64,000 bases of DNA from a virus, in IMG/VR virus record IMGVR_UViG_3300045988_131126. One strand, 5' to 3'. The position numbers and the translations under genes are program-made. Every line of letters starts with the position of its first letter. Position 1 is the first letter of the stretch. Positions 9,777-58,904 of the stretch are shown one piece after another. The notes under the pieces are model-generated. The model was not told the origin of the DNA. It did not search any database and saw nothing but the letters and a program-made list of their open reading frames with translations.

Positions 9777-9805
9777 AGGACTAGTAGAATTATTCTACTA
9801 GTCCT
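9777..9805. terminator. Bidirectional hairpin between convergent genes
   Basis: aggactagtagaat-t-attctactagtcct. Confidence 0.6.
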
Positions 9806-14428: not shown

Positions 14429-14447
14429 TTATCTCTTATATAATATA
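14429..14447 (-). promoter_or_regulatory. Early-type promoter word (tatattatataagagataa on the minus strand)
   Basis: Member of the family of about 14 TATATTAT..TGA(A/T)AA words. Confidence 0.4.
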
Positions 14448-14466
14448 TATTTATTGATAAATTTAA

Positions 14467-15509: not shown

Positions 15510-15529
15510 TTATTCGTATATATAATATA
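15510..15529 (-). promoter_or_regulatory. Early-type promoter word (tatattatatatacgaataa on the minus strand)
   Basis: About 20 nt upstream of ATG 15489. Confidence 0.45.
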
Positions 15530-15533
15530 TACT

Positions 15534-17335: not shown

Positions 17336-17415
17336 TTCTGAATCCCTCAGAATGTAAAACTAAACACTCTGAATGATATATTATTACAATGAATAAGTTC
17401 AGAATGATTCTGAAC
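17336..17415. promoter_or_regulatory. Cluster of TCWGAAT half-sites, including the perfect palindrome GTTCAGAAT-G-ATTCTGAAC
   Basis: tctgaat at 17337-17343, tcagaat at 17347-17353, tctgaat at 17368-17374, palindrome at 17397-17415. Confidence 0.55.
17377..17396 (+). promoter_or_regulatory. Early-type promoter word (tatattattacaatgaataa)
   Basis: Upstream of 17484 and flanked by TCWGAAT sites. Confidence 0.55.
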
Positions 17416-21283: not shown

Positions 21284-22150
21284 TTATAAATATTTTTTAG
21301 TACAGAAATCTATTATTTCATCTCTTACATGATCTTCTATATTAACCATTGCTATATCTCCGGTAGTTTTATTTACCAATCTTACTTGATTAGCATTTTC
21401 TGTAAGAGATATATCATTATACTCAAATTCTAATGATTCTGTAAACATTTTAAGATTAGCGGATTCCTGTTTGACGAAATCTATCACTCCTGGAGTAATA
21501 ATAGGAATAAGCAAACCAGAATCATTTTCTGTAAGATATAATCTGTTTCCATTATCGCATATTCCAGATTCTTGAATACAAGCACCTTCAGATACAATCT
21601 TTTCTGTATATGCTTTATCATGGGATGGATAAATTACTCTATCATAAGTAATTAATTTAAGACCTTTTACCTCTCCACCTCTAGCAGTCTGTTCTATTCT
21701 ACCTAAAGCGCGTAAAGACCAAGATGGAAGAAATCCATCAAGCAAATCTTGATTAAATTCTGCTCCTTTAGCATTATTAGTTCCTCTATATCTACCTTTA
21801 ACAAAATTACCTTCTGTCCATAAAGCTGTAAATATAGCAACTGTATTGTTCGGATCAATAGTTTGCTGTCTTTGTAAACTACTATCCATAGGATGACCAT
21901 TTTCTGCTCTCATATTACCAGTTTTAACTAATTCTTGTGTTCTTGAACAAGTAATCTGAGGGAATAATTCGTTATCACTATACCACCTTAAGTTTCTATT
22001 TCTCATATTAGCTTCCTGCAAAATACCTTCTGCAGTAACCTTATTAGTACCATTTCTATCTACGTCTATTTTTACGGGAAATTCCTTGTTCGTAAGACCC
22101 GTTTCAATGATTATATAACCCATATTTTTTAAAGGATTAGTACGAATCAT
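21284..22150 (-). CDS. Prohead core protease, T4 gp21-like
   Basis: By eye, QEANMRNRNLRWY, RAENGHP and LPSWSLRALG align with T4 gp21 QAEVVNRNKRLY, GELNHP and IPGVSSRGLG (the catalytic His and Ser regions). AAGGAGG SD. AACA-N6-TA upstream. Confidence 0.75.
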   Translation of the reverse strand: MIRTNPLKNMGYIIIETGLTNKEFPVKIDVDRNGTNKVTAEGILQEANMRNRNLRWYSDNELFPQITCSRTQELVKTGNMRAENGHPMDSSLQRQQTIDPNNTVAIFTALWTEGNFVKGRYRGTNNAKGAEFNQDLLDGFLPSWSLRALGRIEQTARGGEVKGLKLITYDRVIYPSHDKAYTEKIVSEGACIQESGICDNGNRLYLTENDSGLLIPIITPGVIDFVKQESANLKMFTESLEFEYNDISLTENANQVRLVNKTTGDIAMVNIEDHVRDEIIDFCTKKYL

Positions 22151-22263: not shown

Positions 22264-24756
22264 ATGCATAGATATATCCCAATGCAAACGGTAGTATTCA
22301 GAAAACAATCTCTGACTGGTATGAATAATTTGGTATATATGAATGAAAGCAGATTTATCAATTATGCTTTCATTGAACCGAAGAAGAACAGTCCTTACAA
22401 AGCCAAAAAAGAATATCTAAATGCTTGCGATAATTCCAAATTTTTAAATGAAACTGGAAGTATATCAAAAGTTACAAAAGTAATTAATAGTATAATGGAA
22501 TCGGGAAGCAATAGTCAAAAAGAAGAAACTATGAGATATATAAATAATAACTTGATTCCAAAATTAAACAGAGATGCTACATCTATATTTGTAAATCAGA
22601 TTAATAAAAAGTTTTTGAACGAAAATTACACTAATAGTATTAATGATACTATTAGTATTTATAAAGAATGTGATCGTGTATTAAATAATGACAAGAAATT
22701 AGCAAAGAGATTTAATTTTGATAAATTTATTCAGGAGAATTACAATAGGAAAACTCCTAAAGAATTGGTCTTCTCTTTATGTGAAATGATAGATACATAT
22801 AATATCAGTCCAAAACAAAAATATTATATAGCTTTAGAGTCTGTACAATACGCTTTATATAATTCTCCAGTAAAAATGGATAATGTGGCTAAAGATATAA
22901 CTGATTATTTTTTATTGAGGGAATCAATTATACCGGATAGTATAATGTCTGGCTATATATCTTGTGCTAAAGATAACCAATTTTTAAGCCCAGAAGAATT
23001 ATCCAAATTAAAAATAATCAAAAATGATTATAGGGATTCGTATTTAACAAAGATAAATTATATTTCATCTACATTAGATAACGAAAGAGCAAGAAATATG
23101 CTCAATAGAATTCAAAATATTAGTACGGAGGAAGATGCTTCCCAGTATATAAAAGATGTATATAATTCTATTATGAATGACGTTACATTATCAGATTCGG
23201 ATAAAACAGAATTGGAGAATTCTATATATATGATACCATTAGTATCTGGTATAGATCAATTATTTATTGACTACGAGATTAAGAAAATAGATGGAGCACT
23301 ACTGGCAACAAGAGATTTAACTGAAACTGTAAACTATATAAACGAATATTTTGAGGATACTGGAATGGTAAGTGCTCCGAATATTCGTGATACTATAGAA
23401 AGTTTCAAATGCTCACAAGATAAGACACCGAAAAGATTTGCAAGATTAATCGGTAAGTTTAATATAAACAGCGAATATGCTATTGATGTACTTATAGAAT
23501 CTTTGCCTGAATTATATCTTATAATGAGATCTATATATGTAGCGGTATATTCTAATTCTGATTTAGAATATGTAATGCAAGAATATTTGTATTTATTCGA
23601 TAGAATTGACGAATATGCTGATCAGAAGCAATATGCCGATATATATAAAGCAATATCTAAAGAGATATCATGTGTTGATAAGATATTAAACGATGGAATA
23701 CCAGACCAAGAGATATCTGAAAGATATATAGAATATAAATCTACTCTCGATAAATCTTTACAAAAAATAGATAAATTGATGAGTACCCACCACGATATTT
23801 TATCGGAAAATACAAGTTTATTTAATGATATGAGTATAGAAGAATGTGAAAGTCTAATTACTACTTTAGCTAATGGAATGGATTCAGTAAATAGATTAAA
23901 TAAAGAAGAATTGCTATCATCTATATCCGATAATATAAGATTATTTACTATAAATTCTGATAATCTTAGAAATCTTTCTAATATATTGATGATAAGCAAA
24001 TGTGTAGATAAATCTGCCTATCAAAGTTGTTTGATTCAAAGAGCTTCTAATGATGATTGTACCAAAGCTGAAAATCTTATTATTGCAAATGAATTATCTT
24101 ATCTTAAAGATTATTGCTATCCAAAAGTAGACGAGATAACCGAATGTGTAATGATAATAGAATCAGTAAAATTATTAGAAGAATGCTTTTTTGAAGATAT
24201 AGTAAATGAAGCCACAGGAAAACCAATTGGTAAAAAGAAAAAGAAGAAATTGACATTTAATGACCTTCAGATAGCCATGAAAGCATTTGGAGCTAAATTA
24301 AGACAAATAAATACTAAAGCTGCGTCTATGTGGCAAAATATAGATGCTAAAGCAGCTAATATAACCAAAGGAATGCAGAGGGCGTTGACATCAGATAGAA
24401 GAGAAGCCATTATAAAAGGATCTATTATACCATCGATGTCTTCTTGCATTAAATCTATTATAGCTATATCTGGTACAACATTAGTCGGATCATTCTTTGG
24501 CGCACCATATGTAGGAATATTAACAGCTGTAGGTATATTTGCAGTTAATAAAAAATTAAACGATAGAGAGAGACTTTTAATTTATGATGAAATAGATACA
24601 GAGTTAAAAGTTGTAGATAAAGAAATAGAGATGGCACTTCAAGATGGGGATACTAAGAAGTATAGATTTCTATTAAATTATCAGAAAAAATTAAATAGGG
24701 AAAAAACTAGAATAAAATATCACACTACACCAATAGCCAGAAAGATTCCAGTATAA
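22264..24756 (+). CDS. Hypothetical large head-module protein with C-terminal TM segments
   Basis: ORF track. GGGAGG SD. AACA-N6-TA at 22223-22234. It lies between the protease and the acidic / major-capsid genes. Confidence 0.75.
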   Translation: MHRYIPMQTVVFRKQSLTGMNNLVYMNESRFINYAFIEPKKNSPYKAKKEYLNACDNSKFLNETGSISKVTKVINSIMESGSNSQKEETMRYINNNLIPKLNRDATSIFVNQINKKFLNENYTNSINDTISIYKECDRVLNNDKKLAKRFNFDKFIQENYNRKTPKELVFSLCEMIDTYNISPKQKYYIALESVQYALYNSPVKMDNVAKDITDYFLLRESIIPDSIMSGYISCAKDNQFLSPEELSKLKIIKNDYRDSYLTKINYISSTLDNERARNMLNRIQNISTEEDASQYIKDVYNSIMNDVTLSDSDKTELENSIYMIPLVSGIDQLFIDYEIKKIDGALLATRDLTETVNYINEYFEDTGMVSAPNIRDTIESFKCSQDKTPKRFARLIGKFNINSEYAIDVLIESLPELYLIMRSIYVAVYSNSDLEYVMQEYLYLFDRIDEYADQKQYADIYKAISKEISCVDKILNDGIPDQEISERYIEYKSTLDKSLQKIDKLMSTHHDILSENTSLFNDMSIEECESLITTLANGMDSVNRLNKEELLSSISDNIRLFTINSDNLRNLSNILMISKCVDKSAYQSCLIQRASNDDCTKAENLIIANELSYLKDYCYPKVDEITECVMIIESVKLLEECFFEDIVNEATGKPIGKKKKKKLTFNDLQIAMKAFGAKLRQINTKAASMWQNIDAKAANITKGMQRALTSDRREAIIKGSIIPSMSSCIKSIIAISGTTLVGSFFGAPYVGILTAVGIFAVNKKLNDRERLLIYDEIDTELKVVDKEIEMALQDGDTKKYRFLLNYQKKLNREKTRIKYHTTPIARKIPV

Positions 24757-25785: not shown

Positions 25786-27558
25786 ATGATCGCAGGAAAT
25801 ACTACTAATACAGTCATGGGTGGTTCTTATAGTGCTGATCACGCACTTTATAACTTCTCAGAACAAGTTAAAAACTTATTTGAAGATATGGAGCAGACAT
25901 CTCAGCACAACATTCTCAGTGAGACATGTAAAGTGCTTAAAGATGATCTTGCTTCTGATCAGCTCAAGAAATTCTTCGTTGAAAATTCTTGTGATGTAAA
26001 CGAATACGTTGAAAGACCTCAGGCTCTTGAGGAACACTACAACGATATGGAACAGCTGTATGAAAACGATAAGAAAGCTCTTATGGAGAATACAGCTATG
26101 GGAACAATCAACCCTATCGTTGGTCTTACATTCCCAATGCATAAACTTATTCTTATGAATATGGTTTTTGATAAAGGTGCTATTCAGAAAATGATCGCTC
26201 CACAGCAAGCATTCACTGTTGCTATGGAAAGACGTATCATGATTGATACTGAAGGAAATGAGCTTGACCTTTACAAAGATCAGAATAAACTTACTGCAGC
26301 TATTAAGAAAACTGCAGCTGTTAAAGAGATCGAACTTCAGCTTCCTGTAACTGATGATACAGAAATTGTAAATCAGTATCTTGATGGTATGGCTGGTGTT
26401 GATCATCTTAACGTTGAAACATATGTATGTGCTGTTAAAGTACCTAACGTATATTTCGAAAAAGGTGATATTCTTCCGGATGAAAATGGATATCTTGGAG
26501 AGGGAGAAGAAGCTACAGAAGCTACAACAAAAGATGTTTGGGTTCGTACAAAAGCTAACTTCGTTCCGATCTATGATGATGACGGAAGAGGACTTACACA
26601 TAAATTCAAATTCACCCACAAAGTACTTGAGGGTTCAGAAGTAAAAATTAAAGATGACTGTGATGTACTGACAGGTTATATGAAGAAAGACCGTCTGATG
26701 ATCCAGTCTAACAAGGGTGTTGTTACAGCTGTTAAGGTATATGCAAGACTTGATACATCTTCTGCAAACCTTACTACATGCTCTGCATCCTGGAAACAGA
26801 TCACAAGCCTTGTAGAGATTCCTGAAGGTATGCCAATCAATACCACAATCTCTCCGCAGGAAGTTAAAGATATTGCAGCAATGTATAATATCAACCAGAT
26901 TACAAAAGTTCTGGATATTACAAAAACATTACTTGCAAACTATAAAGATGATGATATTAAAGAATCCCTTGATACGTCTTATCTTGGATTATCTGAGGAC
27001 GAGAAATTCTTTAATACATACGATTTTGCTCCAAGAGCATCTTACTACAGTGACCATGTAAATTGGAGACGTGATACATTCTTCGATTTCTTCGATGAAT
27101 TCGTTGAAAGAATGCTTCGTGTACTCAATGATCCGAACGTTACTGTTACTATCTTCGGTGATGCTTCCATCATCAGAAAGATTGCTCCGGTAGAATATAG
27201 CTATCAGTCTCCATCCAACATTGGACCAGTAGAACTGGATTATGTTAAGACTGTAACTACATCTCACCATAGAGTATATCAGTTCATCGCATCTGATAAG
27301 ATGAGATTCTCTAATGATCTTATTGTAATTCTCTGCCCAAGAGGAACAGATAGAATCATATACAGAATCTATGATTATCAGACATATGTATCCAATGAGA
27401 TCCGTAATGCAAATAATCCATCCCTGCCAGCTATTCATGCATTTGAAAGATACAAATTCTATGAATATCAGCCAGTTCAGGGACGTATTAAGATTAAGAA
27501 TCCTACAGGTCTTATTCCAGAAACATATGATGTTGTTCCGGTTAAACATATTGCTTAA
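25786..27558 (+). CDS. Major capsid protein, T4 gp23-like (putative)
   Basis: INPIVGLTFPMHKLILMNMVFDKGAIQKMIAPQQAFTV resembles gp23 GPAVMGMVRRAIPNLIAFDICGVQPMNSPTGQVF. C-terminal NPSLPAIHAFERYKF resembles DPKNFQPVMGFKTRYG. Biased codon usage, a late motif upstream and a strong terminator downstream. Confidence 0.7.
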   Translation: MIAGNTTNTVMGGSYSADHALYNFSEQVKNLFEDMEQTSQHNILSETCKVLKDDLASDQLKKFFVENSCDVNEYVERPQALEEHYNDMEQLYENDKKALMENTAMGTINPIVGLTFPMHKLILMNMVFDKGAIQKMIAPQQAFTVAMERRIMIDTEGNELDLYKDQNKLTAAIKKTAAVKEIELQLPVTDDTEIVNQYLDGMAGVDHLNVETYVCAVKVPNVYFEKGDILPDENGYLGEGEEATEATTKDVWVRTKANFVPIYDDDGRGLTHKFKFTHKVLEGSEVKIKDDCDVLTGYMKKDRLMIQSNKGVVTAVKVYARLDTSSANLTTCSASWKQITSLVEIPEGMPINTTISPQEVKDIAAMYNINQITKVLDITKTLLANYKDDDIKESLDTSYLGLSEDEKFFNTYDFAPRASYYSDHVNWRRDTFFDFFDEFVERMLRVLNDPNVTVTIFGDASIIRKIAPVEYSYQSPSNIGPVELDYVKTVTTSHHRVYQFIASDKMRFSNDLIVILCPRGTDRIIYRIYDYQTYVSNEIRNANNPSLPAIHAFERYKFYEYQPVQGRIKIKNPTGLIPETYDVVPVKHIA

Positions 27559-27571
27559 TCAAACAAAAAAT

Positions 27572-27610
27572 AAACCACATACGGGAAATCCCGTATGTGG
27601 TTTTTCTTTC
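27572..27610 (+). terminator. Intrinsic terminator after the capsid gene
   Basis: 15-bp stem aaaccacatacggga / tcccgtatgtggttt followed by tttttcttt. Confidence 0.8.
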
Positions 27611-28197
27611 TACTTAGTGTCCGGATATAATACATATTTGAATATATCCTGAATTGAATCTTTTAGAATATTCGATATTGAATAATTCAAATATTCTTTT
27701 ACCTCCTCTGGAAGGTTGGATACACTGTTTAATCTGTTATTAGCGTCGCATTCCAGTTTATTTATCAGGAATTCTTTTTCAAACTGAATTGCATCAGATT
27801 TTTGTGTATCCTTATCTTTCTTATTTACTTCGTGCAATAAATAAGATGAGCAAGCTCCTACGAATTCTAAATTCGTCGGTTTGTTCATCTTTTTGTAGTA
27901 TTTGAAGACTGCATCAAAAGTTTCAGTATGTGGTTCCTTCCACAATTTTTCTACTACAAACCTTAAATTTCTTTCGGACTTATTCATAGTCCTGATTTCT
28001 GTATCGTTATATTTAGAAACATATTTTGTTGTTTCTATGTATAAAGCCATCATCTTTGGTCTTTCCTTGTTATTGACCAAACTTTCACAATATCTTTTAA
28101 GTATATACTTAAAAGATATTTCTCCTTTGTACGCATTAGGTATTATACCTAATCTTTCAGTAAATTCATTAATTTCATTTTCTGTCGGTACTCTCAT
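27610..28197 (-). CDS. Hypothetical early protein (195 aa)
   Basis: ORF track. GGAGGA SD. Early promoter word and a TCTGAAT palindrome upstream. Confidence 0.75.
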   Translation of the reverse strand: MRVPTENEINEFTERLGIIPNAYKGEISFKYILKRYCESLVNNKERPKMMALYIETTKYVSKYNDTEIRTMNKSERNLRFVVEKLWKEPHTETFDAVFKYYKKMNKPTNLEFVGACSSYLLHEVNKKDKDTQKSDAIQFEKEFLINKLECDANNRLNSVSNLPEEVKEYLNYSISNILKDSIQDIFKYVLYPDTK

Positions 28198-28239
28198 TTT
28201 GTTTCCTCCATTCTTTTATCCAATTATCCAAGCAAAATA

Positions 28240-28278
28240 GAATAACGTGTAGATATATAATGTATCTACACGTTATTC
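28240..28278 (-). terminator. 16-bp hairpin. It is either a terminator for 28333-28977 or a leader hairpin of the 28197 transcript.
   Basis: gaataacgtgtagata / tatctacacgttattc. It overlaps the 3' end of the early promoter word. Confidence 0.4.
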
Positions 28279-28292
28279 ATTATAATAATATA
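28273..28292 (-). promoter_or_regulatory. Early-type promoter word (tatattattataatgaataa on the minus strand)
   Basis: Upstream of 28197 and next to the TCTGAAT palindrome. Confidence 0.55.
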
Positions 28293-28303
28293 CAATTCAA
28301 TAC

Positions 28304-28330
28304 TCTGAATTATTCAGAATGGTTCTGAAT
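28304..28330. promoter_or_regulatory. TCTGAAT-T-ATTCAGA palindrome plus an extra TCTGAAT half-site
   Basis: Palindrome at 28304-28318, half-site at 28324-28330. It is adjacent to the minus-strand early promoter word. Confidence 0.55.
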
Positions 28331-28332
28331 GT

Positions 28333-28977
28333 CTACTTTTGTGTATCTCTACAATGCATAGAAGTCCTGTGAAGGTATTTATTAAAGGTTACCAATGGAG
28401 ACGTAGTGCTGCCACATTTAGGGCACACCATATTGTTTATATGAGTTTTTAAATCTGGTACATCAGATAGTCTTTGATCAGAAATACATCCGCAATTAAG
28501 ACAAAGTACATCATCTTCTGTCATTATAGCTATAATATTTTCTTTATCTGAAATACTATACTTTTTACTATAATAATTAGCAATCATTTCTGGATCTTTT
28601 TCCATAGTATCATATGTAGCTTTATATGGTTTAGCCACTATTTTTTGTTTAGATTCTTTCCTTGGAGATTTATCTAAATCTCTTTGTAAAGTTAAGAACT
28701 TGTAATTATTTCTTTTAGCATTAATAAAATAGTAGATATCATCTTTAATAGCTTTAGGGCCTGTGCAGTATTTCGTAAAGAATTTTTGTATACCGTTATA
28801 ATCTATTGCTATATTCCCAACAGGTTTAGGTATTCTATCAGGATTTTCTGCAGATATTGCTGTCATCGTTATACTCGTAGTTGGTGGGTAATTCATCATA
28901 TACTCTTTAATGTATTTACCTTTTACACTAAACTTGTCTATACAGTTTAAATCGAACCCAAAATCGTTTTCTTCCAT
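28333..28977 (-). CDS. Hypothetical protein with a C-terminal zinc ribbon
   Basis: ORF track. CLNCGC...CPKCGS near the C-terminus. AAGGAG SD. Confidence 0.7.
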   Translation of the reverse strand: MEENDFGFDLNCIDKFSVKGKYIKEYMMNYPPTTSITMTAISAENPDRIPKPVGNIAIDYNGIQKFFTKYCTGPKAIKDDIYYFINAKRNNYKFLTLQRDLDKSPRKESKQKIVAKPYKATYDTMEKDPEMIANYYSKKYSISDKENIIAIMTEDDVLCLNCGCISDQRLSDVPDLKTHINNMVCPKCGSTTSPLVTFNKYLHRTSMHCRDTQK

Positions 28978-29054
28978 ATTTTTAACTCCTTTTCTTTATC
29001 CTCTTAGGTGTGAAAACCTATTATTTTATATAAGAGTTACGGATAGAGTAATAG

Positions 29055-30854
29055 TTAAAACTTAGGATCTGTAAGCTTTACTTTATCCTCATTCAATACT
29101 TTAGTTAAATTATATATGGCTTGTACTGCTTCATTTGTAGAAACTTTAATATTATTTCCACCAAGATCTATATATACTGCTTTAGAATTAATCTGCTCCC
29201 TTAACTCTCTATTGGCTTCTTCTGACCAAACAGCTTTTACAGAACACTGGTCACCATCATAGTCACCACCAATGGATTTAAGATAAACATTACTGAATAC
29301 TAATGTATCAATGAACTTATTGGAAGTATCACTTCCAATATCAGATTCTCTAATCTTTGGATAGAATGGATAATATGTATTATTTACATATATCTTTTCG
29401 GTTTCTTTTGTTGTACTTACTCTTACTAGTATCGGAAACTCGTTGAAGTAAGAATCCATAGGGAATCGAGTAATAAGAATGGTTTTATCCTTACATGCTT
29501 CACATGCTGCCATATATAATACATCACACCATGTAAGCGGCCTATTAATAAGAGAAGATTCTCCCATTATATCACCGCCAGTTTTAGCATACTTAGCTTT
29601 AGATACTTTCTTACCTTTAAATACTAATCCTAAAGTTCTTCCTGTCTTTTGATCGGTTAATGTAACTGGTTCTAATCTCTTAGAGAAAGAGAAGATAAAT
29701 TTATCTATTTGAGAATCTATCTCTTCATCAGAAAAAGTTATAAGTGGATCTTTAGGTTCAAACGGTACTAATTTTTTAGCTTTCGGATCGTAGACTTGCA
29801 TCAATTCTACATTTTGAAATAGATTTTCAAATAATCTTTTAGTCTGGAATATAATAAATGGCTTAAAGTTTACCAATGCAGATGCTAATGGTAATGCTGC
29901 ATGGTCTGTATCTACCATTAAATCTTCCATAGCTTCTACTTTTAAATCTGGAGCTGATAATACCAAACGTGTACCCATATCTGTAGATTTACTTAATACA
30001 GCTTCACGTATAATACCTGTCTTACCAGCTAATCCAATGCCATCATCTTTATTTTTAGAAGTACCAAATAAAGCATTAGATATATTTAATAAAGTTTCTT
30101 GTATTCTAGCATTAGTAGTATTCTCTATAGATAATCCGTAATCCTGAGTTTCTTGTATAGCTTTAGATGATATTATTAATGATTGATAATACTTATTAAT
30201 ACCACCAGCTCCAACAGCACCTTTAACCTTAGTATCCATATCTCTATAGAACGGAGGTATTACAAGAAATTTATCAAGAAACATCATTTTCTTGCATTTA
30301 TATAAGAATTGTATCTTTGTTGATCTAGTTCTTGTACCAGTTTCTTTTATTTTTATTTTATTTATATTTTTTCTAAGGAATTCTATACCAGTATCACCGC
30401 CAGATTGTACCTCTTGAATTAAACCATCCTGGTCTACTTTATAGAATCCTATCCCTGATACTATATTTCTAATTCTTTTATCTATACTGCACCATACTTT
30501 GTAGCAAAATGGATGCATGAACCACCCATGTAAATCAATATAACCAAATATATTAGCTCTATCATCTTTAGTTATACCGAATATTTCTTGAGATAATAAT
30601 CCTTTCGGAGCAGGATAGCCATCTCTAATAAATAATAAAGTATCTGTGATCTCTTCTACATTATTTTTCTTTATAAAATCTTGATAATCTAATAAGTCTA
30701 CCTTAAGGTGATTCATTTCTGCTTCATTCAAAACTCTACGACCATTGGTAGACACCCCATGAACAACAAGATTTACTATATTAAACTCTTCTTTAGTTAA
30801 AGTGAATTGTCCAGATTTACGCTGATAGTTTAGTGCACCTAAAATACCTGTCAT
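29055..30854 (-). CDS. RNA polymerase beta-prime subunit, N-terminal half (phage multisubunit RNAP)
   Basis: FLVIPPFYRD (compare VLPPDLRP), GKTGIIREAVLSKSTDMGTRLVLSAPDL (compare [24 protein letters not shown]), ITRFPMDS (compare NRAPTLH), IGGDYDGDQCSV (compare NADFDGDQMAVH). Confidence 0.85.
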   Translation of the reverse strand: MTGILGALNYQRKSGQFTLTKEEFNIVNLVVHGVSTNGRRVLNEAEMNHLKVDLLDYQDFIKKNNVEEITDTLLFIRDGYPAPKGLLSQEIFGITKDDRANIFGYIDLHGWFMHPFCYKVWCSIDKRIRNIVSGIGFYKVDQDGLIQEVQSGGDTGIEFLRKNINKIKIKETGTRTRSTKIQFLYKCKKMMFLDKFLVIPPFYRDMDTKVKGAVGAGGINKYYQSLIISSKAIQETQDYGLSIENTTNARIQETLLNISNALFGTSKNKDDGIGLAGKTGIIREAVLSKSTDMGTRLVLSAPDLKVEAMEDLMVDTDHAALPLASALVNFKPFIIFQTKRLFENLFQNVELMQVYDPKAKKLVPFEPKDPLITFSDEEIDSQIDKFIFSFSKRLEPVTLTDQKTGRTLGLVFKGKKVSKAKYAKTGGDIMGESSLINRPLTWCDVLYMAACEACKDKTILITRFPMDSYFNEFPILVRVSTTKETEKIYVNNTYYPFYPKIRESDIGSDTSNKFIDTLVFSNVYLKSIGGDYDGDQCSVKAVWSEEANRELREQINSKAVYIDLGGNNIKVSTNEAVQAIYNLTKVLNEDKVKLTDPKF

Positions 30855-30909
30855 TATATTAGACCTCCTAATATTAATATTATAATAAAGTTACAGATAG
30901 CAGAAAATA

Positions 30910-30937
30910 AGCTAGTATGGGTTAACCCATACTAGCT
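30910..30937 (-). terminator. Hairpin overlapping the stop of 30922-31239
   Basis: agctagtatgggt / acccatactagct, followed on the minus strand by a T-rich tract. Confidence 0.5.
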
Positions 30938-31239
30938 GTATTTAAAATATTTATTCGTATTGATTTATCATCAACTACACTGTTTATGAAATACTTATCT
31001 CCATAAATATGTAGAAAGGTTCCATTAATTAATCCTTGCATTTCATTAGCGTCTTTTTTGTTCTTAAATGCTATTACGAAAGGATTAATTATTTTATTAT
31101 CAACAGATATATTCACAGTATCACAGTTACCAAATAGATTATATAGAAGCATAACCTCTTCAAAATGATTAAGTATATATTCTTCTATACTTATATCAGA
31201 GGAACTGGACAACGAGTTTATGAATCTACATCTATCCAA
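30922..31239 (-). CDS. Hypothetical protein (105 aa, TTG start)
   Basis: ORF track. AAGAGGAGG SD 9 nt upstream of the TTG. Confidence 0.65.
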   Translation of the reverse strand: MDRCRFINSLSSSSDISIEEYILNHFEEVMLLYNLFGNCDTVNISVDNKIINPFVIAFKNKKDANEMQGLINGTFLHIYGDKYFINSVVDDKSIRINILNTASMG

Positions 31240-31439
31240 AATCTTAATCCTCCTCTTTTACATGTCTCCATTGACAGCATCTTCTAATACTTCGGCTTGT
31301 TTAGCTTGCTGTGCTCTCTTACTTCTAGATTCACGATCTATTATATATTTCAATGTATTGACATGCCCAAAAGGTATATTAGTCAATTCAAATATAGTAG
31401 TTCTTCCTCTAAAATAAGTAGCTATACCGACACACTCTC

Positions 31440-32990
31440 CTATAAAGCCGCCAGTGCTGCCAATCTGTGACGCGTAAAAACCAATTCATCTGCAGAGATA
31501 GCTGTAGCTGGAATAACTGCATTACATTCAATACATGTTGTTTCAGGAATCTGATAAGAGATAGATTCGTCACGTTTACTGATCTCCTGAATATACATAA
31601 GAATTGCATGATACTGGTCAGAAGACAGTTTACGAATAGTCTTACCAAACTGAATGATTTTAGATTTAGCTGTTTTAGCTGTATTATTTGTATAATGACG
31701 ATACTCGATAGGATCAAGAGTCATTGTATTCTTATTAATATAATAAATAGAATCAATATAAGATACAAGTGCAATAATATCTCTATATTTCTCTACGAAT
31801 GCTGTATCAAGCATAGCAATTTCAAATACCATATTGAAGATAGATGGTTCTCTAAATCCAATAGCAAAATCTTCAGATACAGGTACAACCTCAGATTTAT
31901 ATAATCCTTTAGGTTTAGCGATATTTCCATTATAAATATTATAGAATTTTGTTTTAGCTTCATCATTCTCAAACTTAACGAAATCCATAATATCAAGATT
32001 ATCAGTTAAGAATACATGCTTATTATCTGTAGGACAGTTTGTAATCGGCATATATGCTTCTCCTTCAAATGTAGCACGAAAAGCACCAAACCAATAATGC
32101 TCGATATCGAAGAAGCTTGTGCACTTAGCCCACTCTTCCATTGAAGCAGGCTTATCTCTATCAATAATATGATCATAAAGCATTTTATATCTTACAGATT
32201 CAGAATTCATTCTACTTCCGCCAGGATTATTGAGCTTATCAATTTCTGCACCTGTGAAACCAAGCATTCTAAATCTGTTACCTGTATTATATGCTACCCA
32301 ATCTGCAGCTTTTCTATTAGGATTTTCTACTGTATCAAGTACAGCATTTAATGCTACTGGCTTCTTAGATATTGTAAATGCAGAAAGGTCATATTTTTTA
32401 GCTACAACCTTAATTTTGGATTTTACTGAAGCTTTTAATTTCTCATTGATAATTTCATCATCTCTTGTTTCCTGAGTAGTGGTTGCAGTATTTTCATCTT
32501 CATCCTCGTCGTCATCAGGAAATTCGATATCATCAAGATTAGTAGGAATATTATACTCTTCTTTTTTAGGAGCATTATCAAATCCAATTATTTTCTCAGG
32601 ATCTGCATCTACTTTTACATCTGCCATTTCTTTAAGTTCATCGTTTGATGTAGGAGTCGCAGACGTTGTTAATACTGGCTTTTCTTCTTCATTCGTATGA
32701 TCTGATTCAATTTCAAATTCTTCTTCATTTGTATATTCATCATCTTCTATGATATTAGAATAACCTGTTGTGTATTTAACGGTTTTTTCTACTTCTTCTT
32801 GCTGATCTGGTTCTTTTTTAGCTACGCTTTTTGTTACTGATCTACCAGTAATAGCACTAGCTACTGTTTCTTCGTCTCTTTCCTGCGGATAAGCATAATG
32901 TACTTCGTTTCCATCATTCTTAAGATCACTAAGAGATACGGAATCTTCTGGTCTTGCGTTGTCTGTAAAAACTTTGTTTTCTGTGGACAT
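31440..32990 (-). CDS. Hypothetical protein (516 aa) with an acidic N-terminal third; possible -1 frameshift extension
   Basis: ORF track. AAGGAGG SD. See the finding on 31258-31482. Confidence 0.75.
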   Translation of the reverse strand: MSTENKVFTDNARPEDSVSLSDLKNDGNEVHYAYPQERDEETVASAITGRSVTKSVAKKEPDQQEEVEKTVKYTTGYSNIIEDDEYTNEEEFEIESDHTNEEEKPVLTTSATPTSNDELKEMADVKVDADPEKIIGFDNAPKKEEYNIPTNLDDIEFPDDDEDEDENTATTTQETRDDEIINEKLKASVKSKIKVVAKKYDLSAFTISKKPVALNAVLDTVENPNRKAADWVAYNTGNRFRMLGFTGAEIDKLNNPGGSRMNSESVRYKMLYDHIIDRDKPASMEEWAKCTSFFDIEHYWFGAFRATFEGEAYMPITNCPTDNKHVFLTDNLDIMDFVKFENDEAKTKFYNIYNGNIAKPKGLYKSEVVPVSEDFAIGFREPSIFNMVFEIAMLDTAFVEKYRDIIALVSYIDSIYYINKNTMTLDPIEYRHYTNNTAKTAKSKIIQFGKTIRKLSSDQYHAILMYIQEISKRDESISYQIPETTCIECNAVIPATAISADELVFTRHRLAALAAL

Positions 32991-33010
32991 ATTTTACTTC
33001 CTCCTTAAAA

Positions 33011-33436
33011 TTATAAATCGTCTTCATCATCGAAGTCATCTTCAAATCCAGTTTTAACTGAACCCAAGATATTATCTATTTCATCAGCAGACTGTTTAGT
33101 TTCTGCTGCAATTTTCTCTTTGTTTTTATTTCGAGCTTTTATAACTCTTTCCATAGGTTTAGTATTTAATGGAATAGGTTTATCACCTAATAAGACATTA
33201 GCATATCCATATCCAAGCAATTCATTCATTTCCTGTTTAGAAATATTACCATCTGTCTCTTCCATAATTTCATTAAATTTTTTAGCTTCCGCTATTTTCT
33301 TAGGAATAATAACTTTATCGAACACATCCAAAGCTCTATCAGCATCATCTTCTTTTTCTGGATGAAGCATTGGATCATCTTCCTTAGGAGCAGGTTTGAA
33401 ACCGAGTTCTTCAGGAGTCATTTCTACTAAAGCCAT
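33011..33436 (-). CDS. Hypothetical acidic protein (141 aa)
   Basis: ORF track. AAAGGAG SD. Confidence 0.7.
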   Translation of the reverse strand: MALVEMTPEELGFKPAPKEDDPMLHPEKEDDADRALDVFDKVIIPKKIAEAKKFNEIMEETDGNISKQEMNELLGYGYANVLLGDKPIPLNTKPMERVIKARNKNKEKIAAETKQSADEIDNILGSVKTGFEDDFDDEDDL

Positions 33437-33454
33437 AAATATATCTCCTTTCTT

Positions 33455-33841
33455 TTATCCGTTATATAATTCGGTTAAAGTAACTTCATTATTTTTGGAT
33501 ATATTAGCTTTTAATGTATAAATAGAATCATCAATATCTAATTCTATTAAAAGAATTTTGTTTTCTTGTAAACTTATATTTACGTCTACTTGAGTAAAAT
33601 ACGGAAGAAATCTATTTATTTGATCCTCAATATTTTCTTCTAAGTCAACAATAGTTTCAGAATTCATATATCTATATTTACTAACCAGTCCTACTCCAGC
33701 TTCTGGGGCAATGGAAATAGTACCTGGTTCTAATAATATTAATCTACATACTAAAGTTAGTATTGCATCTTTATCTTTTATAACTAGAGGTTTATTGAAC
33801 GTACTTGTCGTAAACAAGTGATCTGTAAAAGTTTGCATCAT
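33455..33841 (-). CDS. Baseplate wedge protein, gp25 / GPW-like
   Basis: AILTLVCRLILLEPGTISIAPEAGVGLVSKY...LEENIEDQINRFLPYFTQVDVNIS follows the gp25 pattern (sIknsLlgiitTrkGsRpfdPeFGcdL....ve.nIesav..yEPRi....V.v). Confidence 0.6.
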   Translation of the reverse strand: MMQTFTDHLFTTSTFNKPLVIKDKDAILTLVCRLILLEPGTISIAPEAGVGLVSKYRYMNSETIVDLEENIEDQINRFLPYFTQVDVNISLQENKILLIELDIDDSIYTLKANISKNNEVTLTELYNG

Positions 33842-33885
33842 TTACCTCCTTTAAATCTTACTATAAAGTTATTCAAATACAATTA

Positions 33886-33904
33886 TATATTATAATAGTG
33901 AATA
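33886..33904 (+). promoter_or_regulatory. Early-type promoter word (tatattataatagtgaata)
   Basis: About 33 nt upstream of ATG 33937. Confidence 0.5.
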
Positions 33905-33936
33905 CGAAGACAAAAATATAAAAGGAGGAAGTCAAT

Positions 33937-34656
33937 ATGAAAAATATATTAGCCGTATTTAATTGTGTACTTAAAGTTATGCATACAGAAGAAGATTGGA
34001 CGGAAGATGACAGATATTTTATGATATCACGTCAGGATTTATTTGCTGCTTTAGAAGAAGCAGAACAGTATATTTCAGACGTGTTTAATGAAGTGTATGG
34101 GAAAATCAATAATACCGAATGGCCATATAAACTGGTGAATGATGAGTATGATATTTATATAAAAATACTTAATGATAAATTTGAGTCGACCGGATATGAA
34201 CCAGATTCTGTAGATATGCTGACATTTGACCATGATATTAGATCAAATGATGAGTATCTGAAATATGTAGATTATGTGGAATATAGGTATGACTTCAAAA
34301 CAAGAAAAAGCAAAAGATATGAGAATGTTTATGGATGTGAACCTATAAGGCGGGATATTGGAGATAGCAAAAAATATCCAAGCTTTAAAATAGGCGATAT
34401 AGTAAAGCTTCAATATTCTGATAAATTATATGTTGTAAGCGGTGCTCCAACTATTAACAGTTTAAATAGAACTGTATGGAATCTGACATATTGTATACTT
34501 CCGTATATATGTGGTAAAGAAACCGATTTGTTTGTTGATGGTGAAAAAGAAGGAGTACATGAAAGCGAATTAGAACTTGTGTCTAAAGGTAATAATAAAC
34601 ATTTGCATTTAGATTATAAAAAGGGTACGTATATTATAACTGATAAGGAGAATTAA
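33937..34656 (+). CDS. Hypothetical protein (239 aa)
   Basis: ORF track. AAGGAGG SD. Early promoter word at 33886-33904. Confidence 0.75.
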   Translation: MKNILAVFNCVLKVMHTEEDWTEDDRYFMISRQDLFAALEEAEQYISDVFNEVYGKINNTEWPYKLVNDEYDIYIKILNDKFESTGYEPDSVDMLTFDHDIRSNDEYLKYVDYVEYRYDFKTRKSKRYENVYGCEPIRRDIGDSKKYPSFKIGDIVKLQYSDKLYVVSGAPTINSLNRTVWNLTYCILPYICGKETDLFVDGEKEGVHESELELVSKGNNKHLHLDYKKGTYIITDKEN

Positions 34657-35406: not shown

Positions 35407-37731
35407 ATGAACGAAATAGCATTAATGGAAGCAGCCTCTTCTGTATATAAAAGAAAATATCAATGCCCTTACTGTAACGAAAAATATGATAGAATTAAAC
35501 TTGTGGATCATATAGAAAAGAAACATTCGGAATTCATTCCAAAAGACTTTACTGCATCTAGAATAGTATTTAATACCGTAAATAAAAAAGAAAAAGGCAA
35601 ATGCACTATATGTGGAAAAGAATCTCCATGGGACGAAGATAAATGTAGATACGATAGATTTTGCAGTGATAAATGTAAAAAAGCTTACGAGCAACTAGCT
35701 GCAGAAAGATTAAAAAGGGTAAGAGGAATGACTAAGCAAGAAATGCTTAAAGATCCAGAATATCAAAATAATGTAATGCTTGCCAATAGAAGTATATCAG
35801 GAAAATATAAATTTCAAGATGGAACCATAAGAACTTATGTAGGTTCTTATGAGCATAAGTTTTTGGAATTTATGGATAAATTTTTAAATGTAAAAAGCGA
35901 GGACCTAGAAACTCCTGGGCCTATAATAGAATATAAGTTTAAAGGAGAAACTCATAAGTGGATTACTGATGCTTATTATGCTCCATATAACTTAGCATTT
36001 GATATTAAAGATGGCGGAGATAATCCAAATAAAAGAGAAATGCCTGAATATAGAGCTAAACAAATAGCAAAAGAAGATGCTATTAGAAAACAAGGTAAAT
36101 ATAATTATATAAGATTAACCGATAACAAGTTTGAGCAATTGATAGAATTAATGCTTGAATTAAAAGAATTATATATAGAGAATAATGGAGAATATAATCC
36201 TATTATAAGAATCAATGAATCTACTGTATTAGAAAGCAAGAAAGCCAAAGACTTAGGACCTAAAGTATGTAGTAAATGTGGATCTAAAAACATAGGAGTA
36301 TTTTTCCAAGGAGAACCTATCTACAAATGTAAAGATTGCGGAGAATATTTAGGAGTAGTACCATTTAACGAATCTGCTTCAAACGATATAATCCAAAATG
36401 CGTTTAATTCAGTAATTCATACTATTAAATGGTGCAGAATGGATGACTCTGCTTTTTGCAGTATAAATGAATATAACAAGCCAAAGATAATTAGCGATAA
36501 TTCATTCTCTGCTGGTAAATTTGCGTATGAATCTGGAATTGATGCTGTAGTAAAAACTATTAACTATAACAATATTTTCGAAAATGGAAAATATTCTGCA
36601 AGATGTGATAATAATGAATTAATTATCACGATTGATAAATTGAATAACATGAATGAATCATATATTATAGATGAAATATATAAAGGAGATAATAATATGA
36701 TTCGTGAAAATAAATCTACACTTGATCCAAATCATAAAACTAAAAAGACTGATACAACTTTTAAGTTTATAGATCTTAAAGATCCTAGCGTAGATAAATA
36801 TTTAAAACAAGACAAATATTGTACAGAGTATTGGGATTATATTCATAAAAGTTGCATAGGTGAAATAGTTATAGATGCTGATAGCGATTGTATAGCAGGA
36901 TATGTATTCTTAGATAATAAGAAATATCCGGGATTTATAACTCCGGTTGTAGTGATTAAGAAATATAGAGGATATGGATTATCTTCTAAGCTTGTAAAAG
37001 ATGCCATAAATAAATATAAGGCCATAGATTTAACTGTAACGAAAGATAACGAAGTTGCTATTAAATTATATAAAGATAACGGGTTCGTTATAATTGGAGA
37101 CGGTAATTCCAAAAATGAGTATTGGATGAAGCTCAAAAGCAAGCTTACTGATGAAGAGAAATCTAAATCACTAAAAGAATTTTCTATAATAACTCCATCA
37201 TCTGATAAACCTTCTCAAGAAGGATTTATTGGTCATGGATCTTGGAATGCTATTAAGAAAGTTAATGGAGAACCATATAGAGAGCGTGTAGAAGTAATTA
37301 TATTTAATAAGGAATTAGATAAAGTACTTATTGGTACTAGAAAATCTGATGGTAGTGTTAAACTACCTGGAGGTGGTACTGATAAGAATTCTTCATTAGA
37401 GTCTCAAGCTGCTAAAGAATGTCAAGAAGAAGTAAAGGTAAATATAGATAATCTTAAGTATATCGGAAGTTATTCTATGTCTAATGAACAGGCTAGGTAT
37501 AAGGATGATGTATATAAAGGACAATACACGTATCTATATTTAGCAATTTATGATTCTGATTATACTGGATATATTAGACCAGAAGATCTTGATTCTTTAT
37601 ATGATACAGCTGAATGGATGAGTATTTATGATGCTAAAAAATTATTAAAGAAGAGATCTGTAGATTTATACAACTTATTTAACTATAATTATAAATTATA
37701 TATTAATGATTTATCGTATTTAAAATTATAA
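35407..37731 (+). CDS. Multidomain protein: C2H2 and FCS-type zinc fingers, PD-(D/E)xK-like nuclease, zinc ribbon, GNAT acetyltransferase, Nudix-like domain
   Basis: - Zinc fingers: CPYCNEKY..HIEKKH and RFCSDKCKKAY.
- Nuclease: SYEHKFLEFMD..IEYKFKGETHKWITDAYY..LAFDIKD (D..DxK).
- Zinc ribbon: CSKCGS..CKDCG.
- GNAT motif A: VVIKKYRGYGLSSKLV..
- Nudix-like: RVEVIIF..LPGGGTDKNSSLESQAAKECQEEVKV. Confidence 0.6.
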   Translation: MNEIALMEAASSVYKRKYQCPYCNEKYDRIKLVDHIEKKHSEFIPKDFTASRIVFNTVNKKEKGKCTICGKESPWDEDKCRYDRFCSDKCKKAYEQLAAERLKRVRGMTKQEMLKDPEYQNNVMLANRSISGKYKFQDGTIRTYVGSYEHKFLEFMDKFLNVKSEDLETPGPIIEYKFKGETHKWITDAYYAPYNLAFDIKDGGDNPNKREMPEYRAKQIAKEDAIRKQGKYNYIRLTDNKFEQLIELMLELKELYIENNGEYNPIIRINESTVLESKKAKDLGPKVCSKCGSKNIGVFFQGEPIYKCKDCGEYLGVVPFNESASNDIIQNAFNSVIHTIKWCRMDDSAFCSINEYNKPKIISDNSFSAGKFAYESGIDAVVKTINYNNIFENGKYSARCDNNELIITIDKLNNMNESYIIDEIYKGDNNMIRENKSTLDPNHKTKKTDTTFKFIDLKDPSVDKYLKQDKYCTEYWDYIHKSCIGEIVIDADSDCIAGYVFLDNKKYPGFITPVVVIKKYRGYGLSSKLVKDAINKYKAIDLTVTKDNEVAIKLYKDNGFVIIGDGNSKNEYWMKLKSKLTDEEKSKSLKEFSIITPSSDKPSQEGFIGHGSWNAIKKVNGEPYRERVEVIIFNKELDKVLIGTRKSDGSVKLPGGGTDKNSSLESQAAKECQEEVKVNIDNLKYIGSYSMSNEQARYKDDVYKGQYTYLYLAIYDSDYTGYIRPEDLDSLYDTAEWMSIYDAKKLLKKRSVDLYNLFNYNYKLYINDLSYLKL

Positions 37732-39150: not shown

Positions 39151-42100
39151 GTGCCAATATTTGTTGACGATACAGAAGCTGTTAATGAAAAAGTTAACAG
39201 TTTCTCAGCATTCATATCTACTAAAATAATAATTGATGAAAAAGAAAATAAGATATTTATCAAAGGAATTAATTATGATAAATTTCTTATAAGAATAAAA
39301 GATATGTATGAAACTAAATCGGTAAATAAATTATTTACAAAAAACTATACTCCATTTACACAAAAATTATGGGAGAAAAAGAAAATACCTGGATATAAGA
39401 GAAAAGTTACAAATTTAGAAGTAGATTTATTTTTTGCTAGCGAATTATATAATATATTAATGCAATTAGCTGATTATTATAATCTCAGATATTATCGTAG
39501 AATGGCAGAATATATAAAGAAAAATACTTATTTGGATAATCTCGATAAAAATATTGATGTAAAAGTTGATATAAATAGACTAAATAGTATATTGAACGAA
39601 GATTACAAGCCTAAAGATTTTCAAGAAGAATTTATCAAAAAATATTTCGAATATAAAGAAATATATGATCTAGATGGGTATATATTATCGTTTGATCAAG
39701 GTTTGGGAAAGACATTTACCGCAGCTTGTATATCGGAACTTATACATCCAGATCAAACAATAATAGTATGTATGAATACGCTTAAAGAGAACTGGGCTAA
39801 TGAATTAAGATTATATTTCAAAAAATATAATGATATCGAAAGATTCAAAAGAGAAGTATATGTATATGGAGTTTCTAAACCAAAAGAATACTCCAACGAT
39901 ACAAGATATATTATCGTAAATAATGAATCAATAAATAAAATATTTCCATTAGTTAAGAATACAAATTCTACTATGATAATAGTCGATGAATGCCAAAATT
40001 TTAGAAATTTAGATTCATTGCAAACCAAAAACATGCTCAAATTAAAGCAAATAACTAAGTCCAAAGACAATCTTATGATGTCCGGTACACCTATAAAAGC
40101 TAATCCGAGCGAAATAGTACCAGCTATGATGATGATTGATAGAACCTTCACTTTAGATTTAGCCAAACTATATATAAAAGCATTTACAAGTAATACCGAT
40201 ACATTGTCTGATGTGGTTCAGACAAGGTTTAATAGAACTATATATAGAAAAACAAAAGATCAAGTTTTGGATTTACCATCTAAAACTGTAACTAATTTTA
40301 AATTAGAGTATAAAGATGAAGATCCTTATTTGATGATAAATGTAAAAAAGAAAGTAGCGGATAGATTTCAAGAAATACTTGAAAGCTATAAAGACGAGGT
40401 AGATTCTGTTAAAGATGAATTTAGAGAAACGACTTTAAAATATTCATCACAAGATAGAACTACTACGTTAGACTATATAAAATTTGTTGATAAAGGACAA
40501 GATTATGAATCTGTACATGATTCGTTATATGACTTATATGATGGATTTATCAAGAATAATGTATATCCTAATATAAAAGATAAAGATGAATTAAAAAGAT
40601 ATAAATACGTAGTAAGTGTATATGTATATATAACTCAAAAATGTTTTTTCTTAGCTATGGGAGAAGTTCTACCAAAAATAAAAGCTAAAGCATTTAATGA
40701 GTTATATGATAATAATAAAGATCTTATATATAAAATGATCAATAATAATCCAAAGAAAACAGTTATTTTTTCTACTATAGTAGAAGTTGTAGATCATATT
40801 TGTGATGATCTTAATAAAAACGATATAAAAGCTGTAAAGATAACTGGATCTGTAAAAAATCGAATGAATATTATTAATCAATTTAGAGAAGATGATACTG
40901 TAGATGTATTAGTAGCAACCTCTCAAACTATGGGAACTGGTGTTACATTAGTAGAAGCAAACCAAATGATGGTATTTTGTCCTCCGTATAGAAAAGCAGA
41001 TTTTGATCAAGCCTGTGATCGTATATATAGAATAGGACAAACTCATCCGGTAAATATTTATAATATAATAGGATCTACTTCATCTAAAGACATAACTACA
41101 AGAATGACAGATATATTAGATTGGTCAGATCAAATGGTTTCTTCTGTATTAGATAATATAGTTAATGAAGAAGCTTTAATAGAAAAATATAAAGGAGAAG
41201 ATACTAATATGATCATGTTTGAAGAAGCTATATATGATTCTAAACATACAGAACCGGTATATATAGTATTGATGCATACCGGAACTATGCTGGCTAATAC
41301 CATAAAGGCTGTAACAAAAGATGAATTTTCCCATTCATGTATATCATTTACAAGTAAACTTGATCCGATGTTTTCTTTTGGTAACAAGAAAACGTCATAT
41401 ATTGCCGGGCAACCTGGATTTGTTCAGCAAAATACCAAGGACGAGTTTTTTAAGAAGAAAAAATCTGTTTATGAAATATATGTAATGTTTGTAAGCAAAA
41501 GTCAAAAACAGAAGATGATAGATAGATTAAAATGGTTCAAAGAAAAAGATAAATATTTAGGGTATGATATTATAGGATTAATTAAATATAAATTAGGCAT
41601 ATCTAGCGATGATAATCTTAAAAAATGGTTCTGTTCAAGATTTGTAGCAGAATTATTAGGCCAAGCTGAAGATTTGGGCAGGGATGCTAGTTTATTTAGT
41701 CCTCAAGATTTTAAAAATGATTTGAATTTTATTTCTTTAGTTAATAAAGGCGATGATTTATATAATTATGATTACAAAGTGACAGAGCGAAACTTAAAAA
41801 AAATAAAGGAAGGAGATTATTCGTATAACGAATCTGATGCAAATATGGGAATAATAGAAAAAGCTTTACTAGAAATGGACAATACAGATGATATTAAAGA
41901 ATCAACTTTATTAACTGAGACACTAGAAGATTTTCTTAATAACGGTATGACTGTAAGTGAATCTTTAGCATTAAATGAAGCCACATTATCTTCTAAAGAA
42001 AGAAAATCTTTACCTGATAAAACATTTGGTTTACCAGAAAAAAGAAAATTTCCTTTAAACGATTACGATCATGTAATTTTAGCTATTAAATTCTTCAATA

Positions 42101-45661: not shown

Positions 45662-45681
45662 TTATTCATCTATATAATATA
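45662..45681 (-). promoter_or_regulatory. Early-type promoter word (tatattatatagatgaataa on the minus strand)
   Basis: 21 nt upstream of ATG 45641. Confidence 0.5.
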
Positions 45682-45698
45682 TAAAGAAAAGAAATTTT

Positions 45699-47370: not shown

Positions 47371-47390
47371 TATATATTATATAGGTGAAA
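47371..47390 (+). promoter_or_regulatory. Early-type promoter word (tatatattatataggtgaaa)
   Basis: Followed by AATAAAAAGAAAGGAG, a leader shared with the copy at 48154. Confidence 0.5.
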
Positions 47391-58854: not shown

Positions 58855-58904
58855 CTACGATACTATGGCAAAATTGTATTTGTAATATCTTTATTTTTTA
58901 ATTA

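Follow-up and report, generated by a model that had tools for sequence, protein, structure and literature searches.

Transcription by two split multisubunit RNA polymerases (RNAPs) is a well-described hallmark of the phiKZ- and AR9-like jumbo phages. In AR9, the non-virion enzyme (nvRNAP) consists of gp105, gp089, gp270 (the N-terminal part of β′, β′N), gp154 (the C-terminal part, β′C) and gp226 (AR9 GenBank record; PMC5312081). The virion enzyme (vRNAP) consists of gp189, gp078, gp145 (β′N), gp264 and gp125, which are the products of late genes (PMC5312081). Virion proteomics and the crystal structure of the nvRNAP (7S00) show that the two enzymes differ in composition. Virion and non-virion β′ are both split just past the β-barrel domain, at the position of the cyanobacterial γ/β′ split (PMC7598289). 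Here, we analyse a gene of this kind on a stretch of viral DNA of 64,000 nucleotides (the window; IMG/VR record IMGVR_UViG_3300045988_131126) from an uncultivated jumbo phage of about 274 kb. The gene, located at 29055–30854 on the minus strand, very probably encodes the β′ N-terminal polypeptide of a virion-packaged multisubunit RNAP. By orthology, a second β′ gene of the window, at 54150–56357 on the plus strand, belongs to the other enzyme.

The β′ N-terminal gene and its virion-type relatives

The gene is an intron-free open reading frame (ORF) with an ATG start and codes for 599 residues. A Shine-Dalgarno sequence, AGGAGG at 30864–30869 (minus strand), was read from the sequence 9 nucleotides 5′ of the start codon. 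The G+C content is about 30% throughout the window. A first-pass annotation, made from the letters alone, had listed four landmarks of β′ in canonical order, and all four were located in the translation: FLVIPPFYRD at residues 196–205 (30240–30269), GKTGIIREAVLSKSTDMGTRLVLSAPDL at residues 277–304 (29943–30026), ITRFPMDS at residues 461–468 and the catalytic loop IGGDYDGDQCSV at residues 528–539 (29238–29273), which contains DYDGD. Hidden Markov model alignment equates the first of these with VIPPDLRP of bacterial β′ and the second with the bacterial segment ending in (A/G)RSVI. The codons at 29250–29264 specify D531-Y-D-G-D535 with the catalytic Mg2+-binding aspartate triad, which aligns with bacterial NADFDGDQMAV and with SGDYDGDV of AR9 gp270. 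The stop codon lies 60 residues past the catalytic loop, not about 50 as had been estimated, and the protein ends where AR9 virion β′N ends, being collinear with the AR9-type orthologue to the C-terminus.

A scan with the PHROG families covered the ORFs of the window with at least 150 residues (except three that overlap longer ORFs) and a small number of shorter ones, and every ORF of at least 80 residues was used as query in a local tblastn search of the AR9 genome. In the PHROG scan, the 599-residue protein matched phrog_2986, annotated ‘RNA polymerase beta subunit’, over residues 47–582 (E = 9.5e-84). A Pfam scan of the protein revealed no domain above threshold, and phmmer with the single sequence gave no match in the PDB, 7S00 chain d included. 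Therefore, a family profile was needed. At least 1158 relatives were found by homologue search, mostly on metagenomic contigs of 220–276 kb, and the profile was based on an alignment of 46 sequences which are 47–76% identical to the query. D531, Y532, D533, G534 and D535 are invariant in this alignment, as are many other positions. When all PDB sequences were compared with the profile, AR9 non-virion β′N (gp270, 7S00 chain d) was matched at 3.4e-12, as were dozens of β′ chains from bacteria, with E-values of 5e-11 to 1e-6. The profile alignment places GGDYDGDQ on NADFDGDQMAV, so that DYDGD falls residue for residue on the bacterial metal-binding loop, VIPPFYRD on VIPPDLRP, and GKTG..R..LSK..D.GTRLV also on its bacterial counterpart. 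Neither of the two outcomes that the first-pass annotation had named as counting against it, a profile search with no significant RpoC match or a DYDGD loop displaced from NADFDGD, was observed.

Structure comparison agreed with the profile search. An AlphaFold2 model of the protein (mean predicted local distance difference test score, pLDDT, 76.9) was compared with the PDB by Foldseek. The best match was AR9 nvRNAP β′N (7S01_d, 3e-16), followed by cyanobacterial γ and plastid RpoC1 (about 1e-14, with template modelling scores of about 0.47–0.50 in both directions) and then by full-length bacterial β′. Over the full length of the protein, the γ and RpoC1 chains matched best. The protein is thus a homologue of the β′ N-terminal half with an intact and correctly aligned catalytic loop, and its double-psi β-barrel contains the DxDGD Mg2+-binding triad. 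The proposal of a stand-alone N-terminal β′ half from a multisubunit RNAP of the phiKZ/AR9 kind is borne out by the PHROG family, the profile alignment and the fold search alike.

The comparison with AR9 also distinguishes between the two enzymes. AR9 reference proteins served to calibrate the PHROG families. Against phrog_2986, which represents virion β′N, the E-value is the 9.5e-84 given above; against phrog_2987, which represents non-virion β′N, it is 2.1e-5. In the AR9 genome, matches of the protein were confined to the exons of g145, three in number (3e-46 and two small exons) and annotated as ‘virion RNAP subunit’, and never included g270. BLASTP against the intron-free g145 orthologue of Goe21 gave 6e-79 with 31% identity, aligning residues 50–585 with residues 1–502. 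The match to gp270 (0.002) covers no more than 27 residues, which surround the catalytic loop. As judged by these sequence comparisons, the protein is an orthologue of virion RNAP β′N (AR9 gp145, phiKZ gp180 type) and not of the non-virion paralogue. We therefore consider it very probable that 29055–30854 encodes the β′ N-terminal subunit of a vRNAP.

Genomic setting, promoter motifs and leader

The window is phage DNA, as indicated by genes for the major head protein, prohead protease and terminase and by synteny with AR9 in the portal region. The major head protein, the protease and virion proteins are encoded in the neighbourhood of the β′N gene. The prohead protease gene (21284–22150, minus strand) belongs to the Peptidase_S77, T4 gp21-like type (phrog_207, 5.7e-22), and is orthologous to AR9 g114; PF03420 was matched on the identical protease gene in assemblies L008–L013.

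The AR9 late promoter consensus is AACA-N6-TA, an element which is read on the deoxyuridine-containing template strand. This motif is depleted in the window as a whole (30 sites versus 72 ± 9 expected). In the 4.8 kb of non-coding DNA upstream of genes, 13 sites were found in sense orientation versus 3.3 ± 1.7 expected, a number reached in none of 500 shuffles, and only three in antisense orientation. The extended form in the window is AACAAT-N3-GTAATT. Sites of this kind are located at 933, 3566, 22223, 25716, 35365, 53401, 53955 and 59133 on the plus strand and at 14400, 16123, 17305 and 22180 on the minus strand. Genes preceded by such sites include those for major head protein, protease and terminase as well as further virion genes.

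Annotated early promoters of AR9 have the consensus AAATATATATTAT, to which PMC5312081 adds -(6N)-G+1. Copies of the core ATATATTAT in the window cluster between genes. The form ATATATTAT-N6-GA occurs eight times exactly versus 0.79 expected (none of 100 shuffles reached eight), and each exact site lies between genes and points towards one: 14432–14448, 15514–15530, 45666–45682 and 53355–53371 on the minus strand, and 17376–17392, 33885–33901, 47372–47388 and 58904–58920 on the plus strand. Six further intergenic sites have one mismatch (16166, 37820, 50790, 54060 and 58506, plus strand; 28277, minus strand). The promoter-like site at 53355–53371 faces the DNA polymerase gene (51195–53315, minus strand), as in AR9. 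That at 33885–33901 may drive the divergent gene 33937–34656 and forms the boundary at the head of the minus-strand block to which the β′N gene belongs. Core, spacing and start nucleotide are the same as in AR9 AAATATATATTAT-N6-G, though the subunits share no more than about 30% identity. Sequence motifs of both AR9-type promoter classes are thus present in the window.

In the homologues, the conserved β′ region is preceded by an N-terminal leader of 9–59 residues without sequence conservation except at its last three positions. These read [LIVMF]-x-E in 41 of the 43 leader-bearing homologues, compared with a background of 0.017 per residue, and the next residue is A, S or G in 30 leader-bearing members. 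In the 599-residue protein, the variable leader comprises residues 1–44 (30723–30854, minus strand) and ends with L42-N43-E44|A45. This segment may be a propeptide or serve in capsid targeting. The junction LNE|A lies in a low-confidence linker of the model (pLDDT below 50 at residues 42–48), and the AR9-type orthologue begins at the position aligned to residue 50. The [LIVMF]-x-E junction resembles the classical specificity of the T4 gp21 prohead protease. Propeptides at the N-terminus of some head proteins of phage SPN3US are removed by its protease at A-X-E (PMC10052503), and the vRNAP is described as a head-internal, ejected complex (PMC10612078). The conserved junction suggests that the leader is possibly cleaved by the S77 prohead protease at LNE|A. 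A wider reading, which we put forward tentatively and regard as rather doubtful, is that the catalytic vRNAP subunit of this abundant clade is a precursor with the leader as capsid-targeting propeptide cut at [LIVMF]-x-E|[A/S/G], possibly together with uracil-containing genomes. Uracil-DNA might be expected because the AR9 late element is read on a deoxyuridine-containing template. If this is true, it would provide a first sequence-level handle on the loading of a multisubunit RNAP into the capsid.

Several points weigh against the assignment to a virion-packaged enzyme. The protein is only about 30% identical to the characterised orthologues. Directly upstream of its gene, the canonical late motif was not found, the only related sequence there being AACT-N6-TA. 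The searches did not recover the virion β′C (gp264-like) or the β-like subunits belonging to this very genome. Virion packaging and late expression are predicted by analogy with AR9 and phiKZ. Further, the AR9 orthologue has no N-terminal leader, and most head proteins of SPN3US are uncleaved (PMC10052503), which makes the propeptide step speculative.

The protein might accordingly be of virion type by descent but unpackaged in this phage, for example as a second intracellular RNAP or an enzyme for middle genes. The divergence of about 70% from the characterised orthologues and the upstream region without a canonical late promoter would fit such a role. We nevertheless consider it unlikely. 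The gene resides among head and virion genes, and no early-type site facing it or its minus-strand block (33841 to 28333) was found in the window scan. The leader ends in a conserved motif of protease-junction type, and AR9-type early promoters, which require an injected polymerase, are present. The junction and the neighbourhood of head genes are indirect hints of presence in virions.

Some further elements were noted around the gene. The upstream sequence AACTTTAT (AACT-N6-TA) was rejected as its late promoter because the variant is not enriched (four versus 3.6 expected). Sigma70-type promoters were not enriched around the gene. A terminator-like hairpin with a 12-bp stem and a T-rich tail (30910–30937, minus strand) lies between ORF 30922–31239 and the β′N gene; in the region 27400–34200, six such hairpins were found versus 1.6 expected. 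A perfect bidirectional terminator with a 14-bp stem (27572–27603) separates the convergent genes for the major head protein and ORF 27610–28197, which has weak similarity to Spo0A_C. In the leader of this ORF, a 16-bp hairpin (28240–28278, minus strand) directly follows the early-type promoter at 28277–28293.

Two other repeated sequences were observed in the window. CTTTATTTTTT occurs nine times versus 0.55 expected (914, 11691, 16980, 43779, 50775, 58844, 58889 and 59116, plus strand; 41798, minus strand). At 43779, 50775 and 58889, it is located 4 nucleotides upstream of the early-promoter core. The repeat could represent either an upstream promoter element or the T-tract of a terminator. 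The 15-mer TTTTTTCTACGATAC is present in four copies, all of them intergenic.

The second β′ gene and the other polymerase pieces

The ORF at 54150–56357 codes for 735 residues and lies 23.3 kb from the β′N gene on the opposite strand. The first-pass annotation had given its location, strand and distance correctly and had called it the matching C-terminal half, leaving open whether the two belong to the same enzyme. They do not match: the protein is the counterpart of AR9 gp154, which is non-virion β′C. It matched PDB 7S00 chain D (AR9 gp154) at 5.5e-42 over residues 137–689 and, in the AR9 genome, only g154 (2e-42) and never g264. With gp264, the virion β′C, BLASTP gave 5e-4 over about 60 residues (378–437). 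Among the calibrated PHROG families, phrog_3015 (non-virion β′C) was matched at 4.4e-41 and phrog_2962 (virion β′C) at 7.7e-5. The order of genes is also conserved, as the DNA polymerase gene (51195–53315, minus strand), a gene for a small virion protein (53476–53946, plus strand) and the 735-codon ORF correspond to AR9 g152, g153 and g154.

The nv-β′C gene is preceded by motifs of both promoter classes on the plus strand. An early promoter-like site, ATATATTAT-N6-AA at 54060–54076, has one mismatch, in the start dinucleotide, and occupies the same relative place as the AR9 early promoter in front of g154. A late promoter-like site, AACATATAAGTA, is found at 53955–53966. The nvRNAP genes of AR9 belong to the ‘continuous’ expression class (PMC5312081), which is thus mirrored by the combination of early and late sites.

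On this sequence evidence, the 735-residue protein is an orthologue of non-virion β′C. Since the AR9 orthologues of the two proteins are subunits of different enzymes, the two do not make up a single β′, and the question of a common enzyme is answered in the negative by the reciprocal AR9 and PHROG comparisons. This corrects the subunit bookkeeping: the window contains one piece of each of two polymerases. The contrary view, that both proteins are the N- and C-terminal halves of one β′ in a single, possibly chimeric, RNAP, could appeal to the fact that together they would span a complete β′ and that the same 64-kb window contains no other piece of β′. It is very unlikely, as the E-values for the right and the wrong AR9 paralogue differ by at least 35 orders of magnitude for both proteins and the two AR9 enzymes are compositionally distinct. 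A single enzyme is also at odds with two separate promoter classes in the window, with a gp125-like piece of the virion set adjoining the window and with gp264-like β′C genes on related contigs. That the β′N gene is a decaying or inactive fragment without polymerase function, as the empty Pfam and single-sequence PDB searches might suggest, is most improbable in view of catalytic residues and dozens of further positions invariant in the 46 homologues, the identical sequence in many independent assemblies, a full-length ORF with strong Shine-Dalgarno sequence and a confident fold model.

For the assigned vRNAP subunit, partners have to be sought elsewhere in the genome. Besides the two β′ ORFs, no ORF of the window matches an RNAP family or an AR9 RNAP gene. 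No β-like ORF had been recognised in the first-pass annotation, and none was found in the PHROG or AR9 tblastn scans. A gp125 orthologue was not found among the ORFs just after the terminase gene inside the window. The small virion protein encoded at 53476–53946 is the orthologue of AR9 g153. The idea that it is the β′ fragment nearest the C-terminus is unsupported, the fifth piece of the AR9 vRNAP being gp125.

The window is 100% identical to the ENA contig ERZ27262376 k119_88226, which has 273,686 bp, and the same 599-residue sequence was found in 56 collection blocks on contigs of 259–274 kb. To the right of the window, 10 kb were viewed in a strain with 97–99% identity (L169). On its right flank, the terminase gene is followed, in AR9-like order, by those for sheath, tube, portal and the exonuclease piece of the DNA polymerase. 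Directly before the tail sheath gene, at L169:13484–14281 (about 1.7 kb past the right end of the window, corresponding to about 65707–66504), an ORF of 265 residues matched phrog_2926 (2e-25) and, by BLASTP, AR9 gp125 over its full length (6e-22), in an AR9-syntenic position. A genuine partner from the virion set therefore adjoins the window in this closely related strain.

The search for further β and β′ fragments thus yielded the gp125-like piece beyond the window but not the virion β′C and β pieces of this genome. When homologues of AR9 gp264 were searched, no contig matched as the virion β′C of this genome. Candidate P0213 was rejected, because its records and relatives show another species; the phages with clusters P0310 and P0160 are about 260 kb and about 250 kb in size. 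Both genes on one contig were seen only in the broader clade, where four IMG/VR contigs (3300012274_000057, 3300045988_103266, 7000000364_000020 and 3300014203_000012) contain both a relative of the 599-residue protein (β′N 45–49% identical) and a gp264-like β′C.

The remaining genes of the window are described only briefly. The terminase gene (59170–61386) is a single ORF, whereas the AR9 terminase is joined from five pieces. No tRNAs and no Rfam families were found in the window. Several ORFs have no PHROG match, among them those at 4813–7218 (801 residues), 22264–24756 (830 residues) and 9798–11036 (412 residues) and about 20 smaller ones. The 412-residue product weakly matches AR9 g218, while the other two have no AR9 match. 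ORF 22264–24756 probably encodes a head component because it has a late-type promoter and is positioned between the genes for the protease and the major head protein. ORF 35407–37731 (plus strand) encodes a fusion of endonuclease, GNAT acetyltransferase and NUDIX domains with 774 residues. In some assemblies with identical β′N protein (L008 and L010), this product has 1139 residues and the neighbouring SNF2-type helicase (39151–43737, plus strand) 1348 instead of 1528 residues. These length differences are indel or insertion polymorphisms between strains.

Proposed function and comparison with known polymerases

By analogy with AR9 and phiKZ, the 599-residue protein would be made late in infection. 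Its partners in the enzyme would be a virion-type β′C (gp264-like), the gp125-like piece and two β-like pieces, with genes in other parts of the genome of about 274 kb. The complex would be packaged into the capsid, possibly after removal of the 44-residue leader at LNE|A by the S77 protease. Upon injection together with the DNA, the vRNAP would transcribe early genes from ATATATTAT-N6-G(A) without host RNAP. Among these early genes would be those for the non-virion RNAP, and the non-virion enzyme would then transcribe the late genes with AACA-N6-TA.

The 599-residue protein is a distant addition to a known family which has already been annotated automatically as β′ in GenBank. The entry DAF93072.1 (‘MAG TPA: DNA-directed RNA polymerase subunit beta′ [Myoviridae sp. 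ctcyQ27]’) is in the same 90% cluster. Myoviridae sp. ctcyQ27 is taxonomically unclassified, and no paper mentioning it was found in the searched literature. A megablast search with 12 kb of the window against deposited phages gave no nucleotide-level match. Related contigs are partly from Human Microbiome Project samples (IMG identifiers 7000000xxx), and a human-associated habitat of the clade is therefore likely.

As split two-polymerase transcription is well described, the gene itself is unsurprising, and the promoter motifs and the leader are only moderately new elements. The presence of the motifs in a very distant, widespread and uncultivated clade may mean that AR9-type promoters extend far past the Bacillus phages. 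If they function as promoters, promoter specificity would be tied to conserved parts of σ-less enzymes. No jumbo-phage vRNAP had been purified by the time of a 2020 review, and our sequence searches revealed no virion-type β′N among the solved structures. Practical work on the vRNAP could start from this intron-free, highly conserved orthologue with its leader and candidate cleavage site.

Among the described systems, gp145 of AR9/PBS1 (Takahashivirus; phiKZ gp180 type, phrog_2986) resembles the 599-residue protein most extensively. The two are collinear end to end with 31% identity and have the same catalytic loop and a stop about 60 residues later, an apparently late-type genomic setting and the same early-promoter core, ATATATTAT-N6-G. 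They differ in the leader of 44 residues with its conserved [LIVMF]-x-E end, which gp145 does not have, and in the two group I introns of AR9 g145, one of them inside the DxDGD codons, which are absent from the 599-codon gene. In AR9, group I introns break both β′N paralogues (g145 and g270) inside these codons; the g145 exon junction maps to D533|G534 of the 599-residue protein.

The non-virion β′N (AR9 gp270, phiKZ gp55; PDB 7S00/7S01 chain d) shares the fold, the DYDGD loop and the split point, but is a paralogue and not an orthologue. For the second β′ gene, the likeness to AR9 gp154 extends to the adjoining genes for DNA polymerase and a small virion protein and to the early promoter in front. 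The identity is about 29%, and the 735-residue protein is about 100 residues longer at the N-terminus.

Outside the phages, cyanobacterial γ and plastid RpoC1 are likewise stand-alone N-terminal halves of β′ which end after the catalytic double-psi β-barrel. Such cellular split enzymes have α, ω and σ partners, while jumbo-phage RNAPs are without α and ω homologues (PMC7598289). γ and RpoC1 are cellular or plastid-encoded and share about 15% identity with the 599-residue protein, whereas the gene described here is found in the context of phage structural genes.

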